DNA from: a virus
Taxonomy: Duplodnaviria > Caudoviricetes
Direction: 5' to 3' (one strand)
IMG/VR virus record: IMGVR_UViG_3300006805_000023
DNA length: 64,000 nucleotides
The position numbers were made by a program, and so were the translations under genes. This document shows positions 2,751 to 15,491 of the stretch, in pieces; within the stretch, counting starts at the first letter, position 1; the number at the start of each line of letters is the position of its first letter. The notes beneath the pieces are model-generated. The model had not been told where the DNA came from. It saw only the letters and a list, made by a program, of their open reading frames with translations, and searched no databases.

Positions 2751-3570
2751 AACGGGGAGGAGTTGGAGGGGACGGTGGCCTTGGTCCGGTCGAGGTGCTG
2801 GGTTGAGTTCCAGGCGGTGCTGGCTTGCCGTCTGGCTGGTCGGACCCGATCTCCTTGGTCGGGACATCTTCGGTCCCCTGATCTGGATGATCGGGGTCAA
2901 TGACCGTGGTCCTAGTGGCGTCAGACTTCACGACCTGTCGCCTTCTAGTGTTGCCGTTCTGGACTGTGATGACCGGCTCCCCCGGCTTCGGCGGTGGGTT
3001 GGTTTCGAACAGGGCCGACATCAGCCTTGGCCCAGCCTGAACGGAGTCCCTCAAGCCCAGCTTCGACGCGAGGCCCTGAACCTCACTAGGAGGCTGCTCT
3101 TCTTCCTTGCCTTTGCTTGGGGCTGCATCTTTCGAGGGGCTGGCTGTGTCTTCATTGTCGTCGCCTTCTGGTGGAGCATCTGGGACTTCTTCTGAGTCGG
3201 GAATTTGGACGCGCAGGCGCTGCAGACCCTCGAGGGTCTGTCGCATGTACTTGGAAAGCTCCGTGTCAGCGCTTCCCAGGATGTCCTGAATCTTGGCGAC
3301 CAGTCCTGGGATCTGCTGCGAGGGGTCAGTCTGGGGGTCCGGCTTGAACTGATGCATGGCACCCACCAGAGCTTCGATAAGCAGCTTCTCTTCGCTCTCT
3401 GCCGGGAGAGCACTGCTTGACAGGGCGCGTTCGTTCAGGAACTGGGTGGCGGTAAGCCACACGTCGCTGTACGACTTGTAAGCGTCATTTTCAAGCAGGA
3501 TGGCGTGCAGCCTGCTCGTGCCGCTGCTTGCCCCCTTCGTTTCACTCAACAGGCACCTAAGGAGTCTCAT
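2743..3570 (-). CDS. Probable virion/head-associated protein
   Basis: Begins MRLLRCLLSE; late box upstream; Pro-rich C-terminus. Confidence 0.6.
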   Translation of the reverse strand: MRLLRCLLSETKGASSGTSRLHAILLENDAYKSYSDVWLTATQFLNERALSSSALPAESEEKLLIEALVGAMHQFKPDPQTDPSQQIPGLVAKIQDILGSADTELSKYMRQTLEGLQRLRVQIPDSEEVPDAPPEGDDNEDTASPSKDAAPSKGKEEEQPPSEVQGLASKLGLRDSVQAGPRLMSALFETNPPPKPGEPVITVQNGNTRRRQVVKSDATRTTVIDPDHPDQGTEDVPTKEIGSDQPDGKPAPPGTQPSTSTGPRPPSPPTPPRYV

Positions 3571-11146: not shown

Positions 11147-12040
11147 ATGAACAGCGACTCCACCGAACCCGAACTCTACGACTCCGACGATCAGGAACCC
11201 TCAAGCTCCAGCTCCGCCGGAGGCGAAGAGGCCAAGCAGAACCTCCGCAAGCTCCACGAGGTGGCTGACGGGGATGCCGCCAAGCTCGTCAAGATGCTGG
11301 TGCTGGCTCAGAACAGCAACAGCGAAGGCGAGCGCACTGCTGCCCTCAAAAAGGCCAACGAGTTTGCGATCAAGAAACAGATCGACCTCGCCAGCATCGA
11401 AATGGAAGGCCTGGGTGAGACCAAAGGTCAAGCTGGGCTCTCCAACGAGCCTTTCGTGTCCACCAAGCACAAGACCGCCAAGAAGGACTGCCGCCGTCCC
11501 CCTTGCCACAAGTTCCTGAGCTGGCTTCTGGTCCGTCACTTCCGGGTGGATATCCTGACTCATGGCAAGTGGGCTGCCTCCACGATCACACTCATCGGAC
11601 GTCAGTCGGACGTGTCCTTCGCGATCTACGCCTATGACTTTCTGGTCGAGACCTTCAACCGTCTGTGGCGCGCTTACAAACAACGCACCAGCGCCAACCC
11701 AAGCGACCGCAACGCTTACTTTTACGGCCTCTACTGCCGTCTCCACGACACACTCGTGAAAAGCACCGAAGAGACAATCCGTCAGGAACTGGCTCAGTTC
11801 TCTGAGGAGACTAAGGCTGCTCAGAAATGGGACGTCATGGTGATCGAGGAGAAGGACCTGCTCCAGCAGGCCACCAAGGATCACCACCCGACCGTCAAGT
11901 ATGTGAAAGGTCCTGACATCGGACCCATCACCGACAAGAACATCATGTATGACGGCATGGAGGACGGTAAGAAGATCGAGATTAACCGCCCCCTTGACAA
12001 AGACAGCCAGAAAGCCGAAAAGTCCGCCCTACCAGAATGA
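11147..12040 (+). CDS. DUF2786-containing protein
   Basis: KLVKMLVLAQNSNSEGERTAALKKA resembles DUF2786; later IG..SDV..A.Y.Y.FL segment. Confidence 0.65.
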   Translation: MNSDSTEPELYDSDDQEPSSSSSAGGEEAKQNLRKLHEVADGDAAKLVKMLVLAQNSNSEGERTAALKKANEFAIKKQIDLASIEMEGLGETKGQAGLSNEPFVSTKHKTAKKDCRRPPCHKFLSWLLVRHFRVDILTHGKWAASTITLIGRQSDVSFAIYAYDFLVETFNRLWRAYKQRTSANPSDRNAYFYGLYCRLHDTLVKSTEETIRQELAQFSEETKAAQKWDVMVIEEKDLLQQATKDHHPTVKYVKGPDIGPITDKNIMYDGMEDGKKIEINRPLDKDSQKAEKSALPE

Positions 12041-12414
12041 TGCTCATCTTCTCCAGACCTATGACATGTGCGCTCCTCATGGCGAGCACGCACTTGTTAG
12101 CGAGGGACGGTCAGGTTCTGCTCGGAGTCGAGCTGGAATCTGACCGGGAGAAGATGGACGCAGCCCTGAAGGCAGCGGCTATCGAGTGGGAAGATGCCAA
12201 AAATAAGGCCGCCCTGATGTGGGACAGCGACTGGCTCCCACCTGAAAACTCTCCGTGGCTGCCTGACTGGCAGTCCCTGAACGAACTTCGTCACCCGGTG
12301 TTCTTGCCGGTGTCGATGGACACTAAACATACTTTGGCACCAGCGATAAGGCGCTTCCTCCTATACGGCAGTATGGCGACAAGGGGCACGGCTGCGTACC
12401 GTGTAAAAACCTAG
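12037..12414 (+). CDS. Hypothetical protein
   Basis: ORF track; ATGA overlap. Confidence 0.6.
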   Translation: MMLIFSRPMTCALLMASTHLLARDGQVLLGVELESDREKMDAALKAAAIEWEDAKNKAALMWDSDWLPPENSPWLPDWQSLNELRHPVFLPVSMDTKHTLAPAIRRFLLYGSMATRGTAAYRVKT

Positions 12415-12477
12415 TGTATGTGCAAGAGCGGGAGGGCTGACAACAGTCCTCCCGCGTCTGTTTTCTAGATTCGTCTT

Positions 12478-14058
12478 ATGCTGCCCTCCACCTCTCCCGT
12501 CCCCTCCCCACACGATCTGGTTTACCTTGAGCTGATGCGCCGTATCCGAGCGCACGGTGACTACCGGATGGAACGCACCGGCACTGGTGCCTATTCGTTG
12601 TTCGCCCAGCAACTGCGCTTCGACCTGACGGACGGTAGCTTCCCGCTGCTGACTACTAAGAAGGTCCACCTGCGCTCGATCATCCACGAGCTGCTCTGGT
12701 TCCTGAAGGGCGACACCAACATCAAGTACCTCAACGACAACGGCGTGACGATCTGGGATGAATGGGCCAACCCGGACGGCGACCTAGGACCTTGTTATGG
12801 CTATCAATGGCGTCAATGGGGGGAGTGGTCCACTCAGCGTTTGGAAAAGAAGGCACCTGTCGTTAAACGTCTGGAGGATGAAATCCCGCCTTTCTGCGAC
12901 TACGATGTTTCCCTCCCTGAAGCCCCGGTCATTACCGATGCTGGCAAGGACGAGCGCAACCGCGCTCTCGTAAAGGTCGTGTTTCCACGTTCCTGCTACT
13001 CGTACACGATTCGAAAGGACCACGCCGAGAGGGGAGTGCGCGACCCCTATGCACCGTCGAAGTGCGGAGTTGGCTGTCTCGGCGAGGATGAGAGGACGCT
13101 TGGGATTCCGGAGACAGTCCTCAAAAACCTCATCGCTTGCTGGAACAAAATGATGGAACGCTGCTACGATCCGAAGTGCAAGGAATACAGGTTCTATGGT
13201 GCCATCGGAGTCAAGGTGTGCCGTCGCTGGCTCTGCAGATCCGCCTTCCTGAGCGACGCCACCAAGCTCCCGTGGTTTGAGCAAAAGTCGAAGGATCTGG
13301 CTGGATACCAGCTAGACAAGGACCATCTGGGAGACAGCACTTATTACTCGCCGACCACCTGCGCTTGGGTTCCTGAGTGGGTTAACTCGGCTTACGCTCA
13401 TACGCAGCCCTTCGTGGCGACAGCTCCGGACGGCACAGAGTATTATCACATTTCGCCTAGCGTGTTTGGCTCGATGCATCAATTGTCGGGGCATTCGATC
13501 TGCCGTTGTTTGCGTGGTGAGAGGCCTCACCATTTCGGCTGGAAGTTCTGCCCTGTTGAGGATCGAGGTCTGCGCTTTAGCTCCCCCACTGATCAGATCA
13601 AGCAGCTGGTCGAGGGCATCGTCAAAAGCCCTTACGGGAGACGCCACATTGTGTCGGCCTGGAATGTGAAAGACTTGCCCACGATGAAGCTCCCACCCTG
13701 CCATTGCCTGTTCCAATGCTTCGTCTCCTCGAAGGGCCGCCTGAGCCTCCACCTTTACCAGCGCTCCGCTGACTACCTGCTGGGCGTCCCCTTTAACATC
13801 GCGAGCTATGCGTTGCTGCTGCTCATGCTGGCTCAGGCCACTGGGAACAAGCCAGGCGAGCTGGTCATCACGTTCGGCGACGTCCACCTCTACTCCAACC
13901 ATCTGGAGCAGGCCGACCTCCAGCTGTCCCGCGCCCCGTTCGGAGCGCCTCGAATGGAGATCGGTGACTCAAAGGACATCTTCGGTTTCAAGTATGAGGA
14001 CTTCAAACTGCTGGACTACACCTCCCATGCTTCCATCAAGGCCGCCATCGCCGTTTAG
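12478..14058 (+). CDS. thyA: Thymidylate synthase with a large in-frame insertion
   Basis: ERTGTG, FPLLTTKKV, ELLWFLKG, IWDEW, DLGPCYGYQW, RRHIVSAWN, LPPCH, YQRSAD, GVPFNIASY, DVHLYSNH. Confidence 0.95.
   Translation: MLPSTSPVPSPHDLVYLELMRRIRAHGDYRMERTGTGAYSLFAQQLRFDLTDGSFPLLTTKKVHLRSIIHELLWFLKGDTNIKYLNDNGVTIWDEWANPDGDLGPCYGYQWRQWGEWSTQRLEKKAPVVKRLEDEIPPFCDYDVSLPEAPVITDAGKDERNRALVKVVFPRSCYSYTIRKDHAERGVRDPYAPSKCGVGCLGEDERTLGIPETVLKNLIACWNKMMERCYDPKCKEYRFYGAIGVKVCRRWLCRSAFLSDATKLPWFEQKSKDLAGYQLDKDHLGDSTYYSPTTCAWVPEWVNSAYAHTQPFVATAPDGTEYYHISPSVFGSMHQLSGHSICRCLRGERPHHFGWKFCPVEDRGLRFSSPTDQIKQLVEGIVKSPYGRRHIVSAWNVKDLPTMKLPPCHCLFQCFVSSKGRLSLHLYQRSADYLLGVPFNIASYALLLLMLAQATGNKPGELVITFGDVHLYSNHLEQADLQLSRAPFGAPRMEIGDSKDIFGFKYEDFKLLDYTSHASIKAAIAV
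12820..13590 (+). mobile_element. HNH-type homing endonuclease-like module inserted in frame in thyA
   Basis: About 257 aa between QWRQW and DQI; W..M..RCY...Y..YG..GV.VC.RW, LDKD...Y.P.TC.W...N and a C-terminal NUMOD1-like segment; visibly more A/T at third codon positions. Confidence 0.75.
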
Positions 14059-14137
14059 TCCTAATGGTGAGTTTCAAGTCTATCAAGACAACTCACAAGG
14101 CCCAGTCGTCATAGCTCAACACCCATTTCCTCCACTC

Positions 14138-14884
14138 ATGCAAGACCAAACTACCATCCCAACTCCTGCCGACGAGCAGGGCATCGAAATCCCACAGCCA
14201 GACGGAGCTGTGTCCGTTGTCGCCGACCCCTCGGGCCGTTTCGACTTCACCCAGGACTGGACCCGCCAGTTTCGCGGCAATGATCGCAAGTTCATGCAGA
14301 AGCACATGCTGGACTTCGCGGCTAAGACGGGCAGACCCATCCGCTATCTTGAAATCGGCGTCTTTGAAGGCCGCAGCGGCTGCCACGTTCTGGACCACTA
14401 CCCGGACCTGGAGTACACCGGCATCGACCTGTGGCAGACCAGCGGTCTGTCGCCGATCTACTACCCGTCCAAGGATGACACCGCGATCGGTGCGATTGAA
14501 GAGCGCGCCCGCAAGAACCTTGCCCTCTTCGAAGCTCAGGGCCGCAAGGTCAGGACCATGAAGGGCCAGGCCACCCGCTGCGTCTCCGAACTGCTCGAAG
14601 CCGGTGAGCGCTTCGACTGGATCTACATCGACGCCGCCCACTTCGCCCTCAACGTGGTCGCTGAGGCCGCGATCGCCTGGCAGATGTTGGAAGTCGGCGG
14701 TTTGATGCTGTTCGACGACTACAAGGACCGTGGAGCCCGCAACACCACGCTGTCTGGTGGTGAGGCGTTTCTGCAGCTCGTGAACGCAGAGCGCCTGTTC
14801 CAGAATCACCAGCTCGGCGTCATCAAGAAGTCGGAGTCCCAGACTCAGCCGCTTTATCGGGCGCAGAAGCTTGGGAGTGAATAA
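14138..14884 (+). CDS. Class I SAM-dependent methyltransferase (Methyltransf_24-like)
   Basis: YLEIGVFEGRS, FDWIYIDAAH, GGLMLFDDY; start moved to MQDQTT. Confidence 0.85.
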   Translation: MQDQTTIPTPADEQGIEIPQPDGAVSVVADPSGRFDFTQDWTRQFRGNDRKFMQKHMLDFAAKTGRPIRYLEIGVFEGRSGCHVLDHYPDLEYTGIDLWQTSGLSPIYYPSKDDTAIGAIEERARKNLALFEAQGRKVRTMKGQATRCVSELLEAGERFDWIYIDAAHFALNVVAEAAIAWQMLEVGGLMLFDDYKDRGARNTTLSGGEAFLQLVNAERLFQNHQLGVIKKSESQTQPLYRAQKLGSE

Positions 14885-15491
14885 GCCCCTCAGCCTTCTC
14901 AACAACAGCGATAGCCGCTCCGAGCTGAGTACCAGCCAGGAGCGGCTCAACTGCTGCGATGACGTGTAGGGCCTCTCCGACCTTAGCGCTGCTCAGAGTC
15001 GGCCTAAGCTCCTCGACCTTCTTGAAGAGATCCCAGAACCAGCCCTTTGGGCCGAAGGCAGCCACTGCGTTACCCATGGTCTCGGCCTTCGAAAAACGGG
15101 TGTGGCACTGGTAGAGCCTGGTGCGGAAATGCAGGTGCACCTCCCACGGCTCCGGAGGGTTTGGCAGAGCACCGCCGAGCTGTTCCTTCAGCCACGGCGA
15201 GCCACCCGTCAGGATGTCACACAGGAAGTCATGCTCAAGGGCAGCCAGGGAGCAGGTGCCGTCCGGCATGTAGTAGAACGGGAACCCCCAGAAGATCGGC
15301 GGCACGCTGGCCTTGTCGTAGATGTAGCCCTTCGGGATCTTGTAGATCCGGCTCGGGCAGAACGCCAGAGTGAACTCGTGATCCTCCTGAAGCTCCCATT
15401 TAGGACCCTCAGAACCAGGCCAGAGAGGCCAGAACGGATCTGGATCTCGAACGGCTTCTACCCATGGGTGCTTGAATTCTGTTGTCTGCAT
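14823..15491 (-). CDS. DUF1353-family phage protein
   Basis: YKIPKGYIYDKASVP.IFW...AALEHDFL. Confidence 0.7.
   Translation of the reverse strand: MQTTEFKHPWVEAVRDPDPFWPLWPGSEGPKWELQEDHEFTLAFCPSRIYKIPKGYIYDKASVPPIFWGFPFYYMPDGTCSLAALEHDFLCDILTGGSPWLKEQLGGALPNPPEPWEVHLHFRTRLYQCHTRFSKAETMGNAVAAFGPKGWFWDLFKKVEELRPTLSSAKVGEALHVIAAVEPLLAGTQLGAAIAVVEKAEGLIHSQASAPDKAAESGTPTS

Follow-up and report, generated by a model that had tools for sequence, protein, structure and literature searches.

In textbook accounts, a homing endonuclease gene enters conserved coding sequence only together with an intron or an intein, and otherwise sits between genes. The free-standing homing endonuclease gene mobE, located within nrdA of Aeromonas phage Aeh1, reportedly turns its host into a gene-in-pieces. 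The nearest published cases to the locus described here are the ShiLan domain and a "second LAGLIDADG endonuclease domain" in DNA methylases of actinobacteriophages (PMC9957025; PMC11855218), and a survey of introns in the Bastillevirinae recorded only a few in thyA, with open reading frames (ORFs) of the GIY-YIG type (PMC11878797). Here, we analyze an in-frame insert in thyA, the gene for thymidylate synthase (ThyA), on a 64,000-nucleotide (nt) stretch of Caudoviricetes DNA (IMG/VR record IMGVR_UViG_3300006805_000023), hereafter called the window, whose coordinates are used throughout. We consider it likely that this insert is a mobile endonuclease-type cassette that resides in the reading frame of thyA without any splicing element. 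Its anatomy and family, the negative intron and intein results, its horizontal acquisition, the presence/absence polymorphism and co-conversion seen among cultured phages, and the purifying selection acting in frame were all computed. A full-text literature search found no description of such inserts in ThyA.

The ThyA insert and its protein family

The insert comprises codons 115 to 371 (G115 to T371; 257 amino acids (aa); positions 12820..13590), between Q110-W-R-Q-W114 and D372-Q-I-K. It contains no stop codon, and the frame is continuous at both ends, just as the preliminary description of this DNA had reported for an open insert between QWRxW and DQI. The Pfam family Thymidylat_synt (PF00303) matches the 526-aa product in two stretches (expectation value E = 2.4e-107), the second of which covers residues 370 to 526, and the NCBIfam ThyA equivalog model NF002497 scores the protein at 377.9, above its cutoff of 327. 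All ThyA motifs are found (ERTGTG, HELLWF, IWDEW, YGYQW, R388-R389, PCH with C408, QRSAD, PFNI, and DVHLY), and the catalytic set is complete (R33, E71, W93, W96, Y107, R388-R389, C408, R429/S430/D432, N440, and H470/Y472). The equivalents of ThyA E58/W80/W83/Y94/N177/H207/Y209 are kept, together with the catalytic Cys in PCH and the arginines that bind deoxyuridine monophosphate. The ThyA part of an AlphaFold model matches the solved E. coli and M. tuberculosis enzymes with target-normalized template modeling (TM) scores of 0.95-0.96. The motifs are hence as unbroken as first described, the core fold is predicted to be intact, and the enzyme is presumably active despite the insert.

In the whole-protein model, computed from a 23-sequence alignment (mean predicted local distance difference test score, pLDDT, of 84), both the ThyA part and the insert are confidently placed, and the two low-confidence stretches fall at residues 117-141 and 364-367. 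A model of the insert alone (aa 140-368; 46-sequence alignment) reaches a pLDDT of 93.4 and a predicted TM score of 0.80 and consists of three parts, of which the central one includes a predicted strand-strand-helix unit whose first strand ends in D280-K281-D282. Structure prediction, one of the checks named in the preliminary description, has therefore returned an intact core and an independent module between low-confidence linkers. According to these models, the ThyA core and the endonuclease-type module would fold independently and be joined by flexible tethers. The remaining plus-strand frames across the insert hold ORFs of only 47-67 aa. Inspection by eye of positions 12850-12980 for an internal start that might allow separate translation of the module revealed only an out-of-frame ATG and a GTG within the first beta domain, neither of them convincing, and tblastn located no second copy of the insert within the 64-kb window.

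Residues 175-363 match phrog_2081 of the PHROGs database, annotated "HNH endonuclease" (E = 1e-41). A HMMER search with the insert alone against 1.84 billion representative sequences retrieved 10,803 relatives at E ≤ 1e-3. Among the best 150 of these, 62 are full ThyA proteins with an embedded module and a further 6 are partial; the other 82 are mostly free-standing proteins of 190-300 aa, the rest being longer and without a Pfam family in their other parts. Free-standing proteins of ~230 aa are colinear with the folded insert from their first residues through the final GW.F motif (alignment A3), and every invariant residue of the phrog_2081-type family, including those of domain 2, is present in the window copy. 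Because the free-standing proteins align end to end with the folded insert, what has been grafted into ThyA between two linkers appears to be an entire free-standing gene product. The family is common in cultured phages of Bacillus, Vibrio, Staphylococcus, and Lactococcus, where its members are separate "HNH (homing) endonuclease" genes, and phrog_2081 ORFs also sit in group I introns of DNA polymerase genes in the Bastillevirinae (PMC11878797).

The C-terminal domain of the insert is confidently matched to the DNA-binding domain of I-HmuI. The central domain is more unusual. Pfam HNH models gave zero matches among 46 family members, the window copy included, even at E ≤ 10, and a Protein Data Bank (PDB) profile search with this domain yielded only a chance match (E = 0.58) and no nuclease family. 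The place of the Asp-His pair of I-HmuI-type HNH enzymes is taken by D280-K281-D282, a motif in which both Asp residues are invariant and the Lys is present in at least 90% of family members. Viral proteins in the ESM Atlas contain the same central domain (TM 0.77-0.86), there linked to DNA-binding modules of the NUMOD1, NUMOD3, or I-HmuI type. Since it occupies the position of the catalytic domain in modular homing endonucleases, it is by analogy the probable nuclease domain, of an unnamed type; both the nuclease activity of the module and its target are what we infer from this architecture. The insert had first been described as an HNH endonuclease: this agrees with the annotation of phrog_2081, but neither an HNH model nor an HNH motif is found, and D-K-D stands in place of the HNH histidine. 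We have dropped the name HNH for the central domain, which has neither a Pfam HNH match at E ≤ 10 nor a PDB nuclease match.

Several observations on relatives of the module may be added. In Bacillus phage Chotacabras (locus L003, 2315-4252) and phage LY2 (L009, 803-3871), a free-standing 240-aa family member lies directly upstream of thyA, followed by a small Cys-rich ORF; this arrangement may represent an intermediate stage between a position beside thyA and one inside it. The "thymidylate synthase" of Bacillus phage Kioshi (L004, 2489-4135; 548 aa) carries the module in a very divergent paralog of the ThyA family, in which ECAW replaces the catalytic PCH motif and further motifs are altered. 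Judged by these motifs, the host protein may be a different pyrimidine-modifying enzyme, in which case the cassette would not be confined to canonical ThyA. In many embedded copies at the insertion site used in the window (site A), linker 1 shows a loose hydrophobic-x-V-x-P-[RK] pattern and a P..I/E..P.F stretch (for example, window 12820-12924; alignment A1, columns about 180-215), suggestive of either a common origin of the embedded lineage or a structural role of the linker.

Tests for an intron or an intein

The group I intron model of Rfam (Intron_gpI, RF00028) has no match at E ≤ 10 in the narrowed window interval 12760-13660, nor in the similarly narrowed insert of Bacillus phage 015DV002. 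The same treatment recovers both halves of the group I intron in the thyA of phage LY2 at E = 2.5e-6 and 9.4e-6. Narrowing matters: with cmscan at E ≤ 1 on the whole 4.8-kb LY2 locus, this ORF-bearing intron was missed, and in a 1.2-kb interval alone it was found at E about 1e-6. Wide-interval negatives are untrustworthy without a positive control such as LY2, and the failure of such scans to find anything in window 11500-15000 (E ≤ 10) or in five phage loci carries little weight, as this mode also missed the LY2 intron. The LY2 gene is split by an intron with an I-TevI-like ORF, and its Rfam halves lie at 2414-2543 and 3382-3503 of locus L009.

Inteins were sought in several ways. Intein and Hint models of Pfam and NCBIfam do not match the 526-aa ThyA at E ≤ 1, and the same Pfam scan finds Intein_splicing (E 1e-12 to 2e-15) in two metagenomic ThyA proteins, P0173 and P0206. 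Fold searches with the insert return nothing Hint-like. The insert starts with G115-E116 and closes with S-P-T371, followed by D372 at position +1 (the exact boundary being uncertain by a few residues), so that it has no Cys, Ser, or Thr at its first position, no His-Asn at its end, and an Asp at +1. Beyond the module itself, the insert holds 105 nt upstream and 24 nt downstream (about 130 nt, or 43 codons), and the minimum group I core is about 200 nt; what lies outside the module is therefore too little for either a ribozyme or a Hint domain.

These results bear out the preliminary description, which had seen neither intein motifs nor an evident intron signature, and they leave less favored its suggestion that the insert might be removed by non-canonical splicing, since both scans were negative alongside working controls. 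From the sequence, the insert is presumably not spliced out and is kept in the mature protein. The two control proteins deserve mention in their own right. P0173 (909 aa) and P0206 (871 aa) carry the module at ~147-358 in the usual loop and a LAGLIDADG intein at ~405-744, with the Hint and Intein_splicing matches downstream of the module, and hence contain two unlike selfish elements in one enzyme.

Acquisition, mobility, and selection

The nearest ThyA relative of the window protein, P0002, has 82% core identity, lacks the insert, and is encoded on a syntenic contig (DUF7168 - thyA - methyltransferase - DUF1353 - PurZ-like). In a tree of ThyA cores from which the insert region was removed, the window protein is sister to P0002 (support 99), and this pair is in turn sister to P0017 (support 98), which is also insert-less, as is the thyA of the related contig L005. 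The relatives of the insert are found elsewhere. Its closest counterparts (45-49% identity) reside in ThyA proteins that rank 121st to 160th of 165 by core identity (37-51%), and between P0122 and the window protein the insert is more alike than the enzyme core. The insert phylogeny is thus discordant with that of ThyA.

Base composition and local identity add to this picture. The two ThyA halves each have a G+C content at third codon positions (GC3) of 0.81; the value falls to 0.66 for the insert and to 0.55 for codons 96-115 immediately preceding it, in agreement with the earlier remark that an AT-richer codon style sets in before the insert. Nucleotide identity to L005 drops from 0.8-0.98 to about 0.6 in the upstream flank, whose residues LGPCYGYQWRQW (aa 96-114) are nearer to insert-bearing alleles than to the sister allele. 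Relative to the sister allele, identity declines toward the insert on both sides, across about 20 codons upstream and about 10-15 codons downstream. Together with the GC3 minimum upstream, this decay fits a short co-conversion tract from a donor of lower GC3, as the preliminary description had proposed; the cultured phages described below show the pattern strikingly.

In Bacillus phage 015DV002, a 564-aa ThyA contains the insert after ...AQWGSWG, and its sister phages 000TH008/9 and 015DV004 have an empty gene of 294 aa. The comparison with 000TH008 counts 7 nt differences in codons 1-127, then 55 in the 150 nt that follow the insert (50 codons), and 2 in the final 342 nt (114 codons), a distribution that reads as a one-sided co-conversion tract. 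The insert is likewise present in Escherichia phage UE-S1 and in Klebsiella phages KP13-7 and phiKp_21, and about 25 Asteriusvirus genomes have the empty gene. UE-S1 and the empty coliphage 121Q are 95-98% identical in distal thyA except for one block of about 50% identity, made up of the insert, about 25 codons before it, and about 90 after it. The behavioral hallmarks of a homing element, namely site polymorphism, co-conversion of flanks, and a discordant phylogeny, are therefore all observed.

The pair of UE-S1 and KP13-7 also allows a view of selection. Because the synonymous divergence (dS) of the insert, 0.26-0.58, is well below that of the thyA flanks, 1.1-1.7, the insert was exchanged after these two phages diverged. 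In this pair, the insert is under purifying selection in the thyA frame: the ratio of nonsynonymous to synonymous rates (omega) is 0.15 in the module, where codon positions 1, 2, and 3 have changed 25, 8, and 54 times, and the 6 changes in the counterpart of linker 2 are all synonymous (0 nonsynonymous). The thyA halves around the insert have an omega of 0.05-0.07. The UE-S1 (L002, 2486-4039) and KP13-7 (L008, 1501-3054) modules have lost family-invariant residues (RC to RV, and a shortened YG..G loop) and miss the final GW.F part of the DNA-binding domain, with omega still at 0.15, and the ThyA next to them has GMCH for PPCH at the catalytic Cys.

Across the family, two insertion sites are used: about 76 proteins carry the insert after YGxQ(W/F)R, and 10 carry it before GDLGPxYG. 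Short forms without the beta domain number 12. The main loop is naturally permissive, given that its length varies by roughly 40 residues among insert-less ThyA proteins; the two sites are presumably the loops in which the eukaryotic and Lactobacillus casei enzymes carry insertions. On a ThyA tree of 166 sequences, insert presence requires at least 12 gains or losses, compared with about 56 when labels are shuffled.

The features of the locus are collected in Table 1. The neighborhood runs from the gene for a DUF7168 protein through a small ORF to thyA, whose end is overlapped by a Methyltransf_24 gene, and continues with DUF1353 and a homolog of PurZ-like adenylosuccinate synthetase. This neighborhood (window 12037-12414 and 13808-14884) is syntenic with L005, a related contig of 26.9 kb.

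Table 1. Features of the thyA locus, with window positions and residue numbers of the 526-aa product
Feature	Positions	Strand	Evidence or remarks
thyA ORF including the in-frame insert	12478..14058	+	526 codons plus stop; Pfam, NCBIfam
N-terminal ThyA part, aa 1-114, ending in YGYQWRQW	12478..12819	+	Pfam/NCBIfam ThyA matches, alignment, GC3 0.81 (aa 1-95)
Upstream flank, aa 96-114, candidate co-conversion tract	12763..12819	+	GC3 0.55, lowered identity to L005
Linker 1, aa 115-149	12820..12924	+	pLDDT <50 at residues 117-141; missing from free-standing homologs, which begin after the linker
Module domain 1, aa 150-200, small three-stranded beta domain	12925..13077	+	
Module domain 2, aa 201-311, presumed catalytic domain	13078..13410	+	core W..M..RCY...YG..G...W...LDKD...YSP.TC.W
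D-K-D motif, GAC AAG GAC (D280-K281-D282)	13315..13323	+	end of first strand of predicted beta-beta-alpha unit
Module domain 3, aa 299-363, I-HmuI-type DNA-binding domain (NUMOD-like)	13372..13566	+	
Linker 2, aa 364-371	13567..13590	+	pLDDT <50 at residues 364-367
C-terminal ThyA part, aa 372-526 plus stop codon	13591..14058	+	R388-R389, C408, R429/S430/D432, N440, H470/Y472

Proposed mechanism, alternatives, and relation to known systems

We propose the following scheme. A complete member of a phage homing endonuclease family would have been grafted into a length-variable surface loop of ThyA, held by an upstream linker of ~35 aa and a downstream linker of ~8 aa, and would be transcribed and translated from the signals of thyA itself as a single 526-aa protein. 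During mixed infection, the ThyA-tethered module would bind insert-less thyA alleles and cut or nick them, and recombinational repair off the filled allele would copy the cassette plus neighboring thyA codons. The loop would tolerate the insertion and ThyA would stay active; no intron or intein would be needed because the enzyme remains functional with a loop insertion. In the window phage, the cassette was gained after its lineage split from the closest known relatives, from a donor of lower GC3.

Several points weigh against this scheme. It leans on an absence of splicing and of proteolytic release that is read from the sequence; the window phage has no known close insert-bearing relative, and recent mobility is demonstrated in other phages only; the mosaic blocks could come from ordinary recombination without endonuclease cleavage; a large clade of the ThyA-core tree inherits its insert vertically; and the degenerate yet constrained copies in Asteriusvirus suit a domesticated or tolerated domain as well as they suit an active endonuclease. 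The last two points are also what the main rival would expect, namely that the insert once entered by homing and is now a fixed, non-mobile domain of ThyA here, either inert or with a new role (as a tether to DNA or to a replication or deoxynucleoside triphosphate complex, or in regulation). It accounts for the small number of changes on the ThyA tree, for the losses of RC, of the YG..G loop, and of the end of the C-terminal domain in Asteriusvirus/Alcyoneusvirus copies that remain constrained, and for the lack of a nuclease signature in the Pfam and PDB profile searches. We nevertheless hold it to be unlikely, as no family-invariant residue is missing from the window copy, its DNA-binding domain is confidently of the I-HmuI type, its GC3 is not yet ameliorated, and related cassettes, accompanied by co-conversion tracts, are present in some cultured phages and absent from near-identical ones. 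The preliminary description had pictured a homing endonuclease tolerated as a permanent domain in a surface loop. A whole grafted module, an intact predicted core, and no intron or intein agree with most of this, but "permanent" overstates the case for an insert that seems mobile and varies in presence between close relatives. Nor is it at all probable that the insertion inactivated thyA, with the gene now decaying and the open frame a recent accident. A large insertion does interrupt the enzyme, and its activity here is a prediction; set against this are the intact catalytic motifs, an equivalog score above the cutoff, the predicted core fold, the low omega of the ThyA halves around the insert in UE-S1 and KP13-7, and an open frame retained in dozens of divergent insert-bearing ThyA proteins.

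The remaining alternatives invoke removal of the insert, either from the mRNA or from the protein. A self-splicing intron, of group I or another kind, with an endonuclease ORF that by chance reads through in frame with both exons has precedents: DNA polymerase genes of the Bastillevirinae harbor group I introns with phrog_2081 ORFs (PMC11878797), introns are classically found in thyA, that of LY2 holding one flanked by Rfam matches on both sides, and ORF-bearing introns can escape wide-interval scans. We judge it very unlikely here, given that no Intron_gpI match appears at E ≤ 10 under the narrowed conditions that reveal the LY2 intron, that the sequence beside the ORF-homologous module is shorter than any known group I core, that the frame is kept open in 86 divergent full-length proteins at two different sites, and that the changes in the downstream linker between UE-S1 and KP13-7 are purely synonymous. 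Similarly slim are the prospects of post-translational removal, by unrecognized protein splicing or by proteolysis of the linkers, which would release the endonuclease and leave ThyA either ligated or in two pieces. Like an intein, the insert keeps the frame and has no stop; its module is bordered by flexible low-confidence linkers, and non-canonical inteins do exist in phages (bioRxiv 10.1101/2025.01.02.630785). On the other hand, Hint and intein models find nothing here and are positive in P0173 and P0206, neither junction offers a nucleophile, the fold searches contain no Hint-like fold, and only 35 + 8 residues lie beyond the complete module, where a Hint fold needs about 130 aa.

If the insert is such a cassette, what would be new beside the known kinds is a homing endonuclease element with an unspliced, in-frame lifestyle. 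It is about an even question whether this amounts to a third lifestyle of homing endonuclease genes in coding genes, beside introns and inteins: an actively homing, never-spliced in-frame passenger that uses the expression signals of its host and settles in permissive loops. The selfish element seems to survive inside an enzyme through tolerance rather than splicing, and dozens of divergent phage ThyA proteins with the cassette, together with signs of ongoing transfer, suggest that splicing is dispensable where the insertion site is structurally permissive. One may speculate further that the obligate ThyA dimer would pair two I-HmuI-like, nicking-type modules and so convert nicks into double-strand breaks at empty thyA alleles. 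Cultured pairs of filled and empty phages exist, namely Bacillus phages 015DV002 and 000TH008 and coliphages UE-S1 and 121Q. These cassettes bear on the possible origin of inteins and intron ORFs and on the identity of the unnamed, presumably catalytic D-K-D-core domain that thousands of phage proteins combine with NUMOD DNA-binding modules. They are also natural cases of ThyA tolerating a domain insertion, and, as far as annotation is concerned, cassette-bearing genes are labeled plainly as "thymidylate synthase."

Among known systems, the arrangement of mobE in the nrdA of phage Aeh1 is similar in that an endonuclease gene of free-standing type lies within an essential gene of nucleotide metabolism with no splicing element. 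There, however, nrdA is said to be split into two reassembling polypeptides, whereas thyA is read without interruption and is predicted to give a single fusion protein. The group I introns of phage td/thyA genes (I-TevI and I-BmoI type) share the target gene, the co-conversion of flanks, and the polymorphism among related phages, but they self-splice as RNA, carry GIY-YIG enzymes, and occupy a different insertion site. Inteins with endonuclease domains, including those of P0173 and P0206, are likewise in-frame mobile elements that are co-translated with a conserved enzyme and spread by homing; unlike them, the cassette has no Hint domain, no junction nucleophiles and no room for them, and is presumably never excised.

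The free-standing and intron-encoded phrog_2081/I-HmuI-like enzymes of Bacillus, Vibrio, and Staphylococcus phages (PDB: 1U3E; PMC11878797) are of the same family end to end and have the same I-HmuI-type DNA-binding domain, and members adjoin thyA in Chotacabras and LY2. These enzymes differ in being separate ORFs, intergenic or in the loops of group I introns, and the catalytic domain of I-HmuI is a canonical HNH domain, in contrast to the D-K-D core of the module family, which has no HNH signature.

With the ShiLan and LAGLIDADG insertions in methylases, finally, the cassette shares an in-frame position, the absence of a detectable intein or intron, conserved sites, and predicted retention as a separate lobe, and, as with the ShiLan domain, its distribution is disjunct and its sequence less divergent than the host gene. 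The host enzyme differs, being ThyA in place of a methylase. In ShiLan, the HNH endonuclease occupies another frame and the host frame encodes a poorly structured hairpin, whereas the ThyA module is read in the host frame and is predicted to fold confidently; the alternate-frame arrangement is not seen here, since the module lies in the thyA frame and the other plus-strand frames hold only the short ORFs noted above. The lone LAGLIDADG domain, for its part, is vertically inherited in one phage cluster, whereas the ThyA cassette is polymorphic, is accompanied by co-conversion tracts, and occupies two sites.

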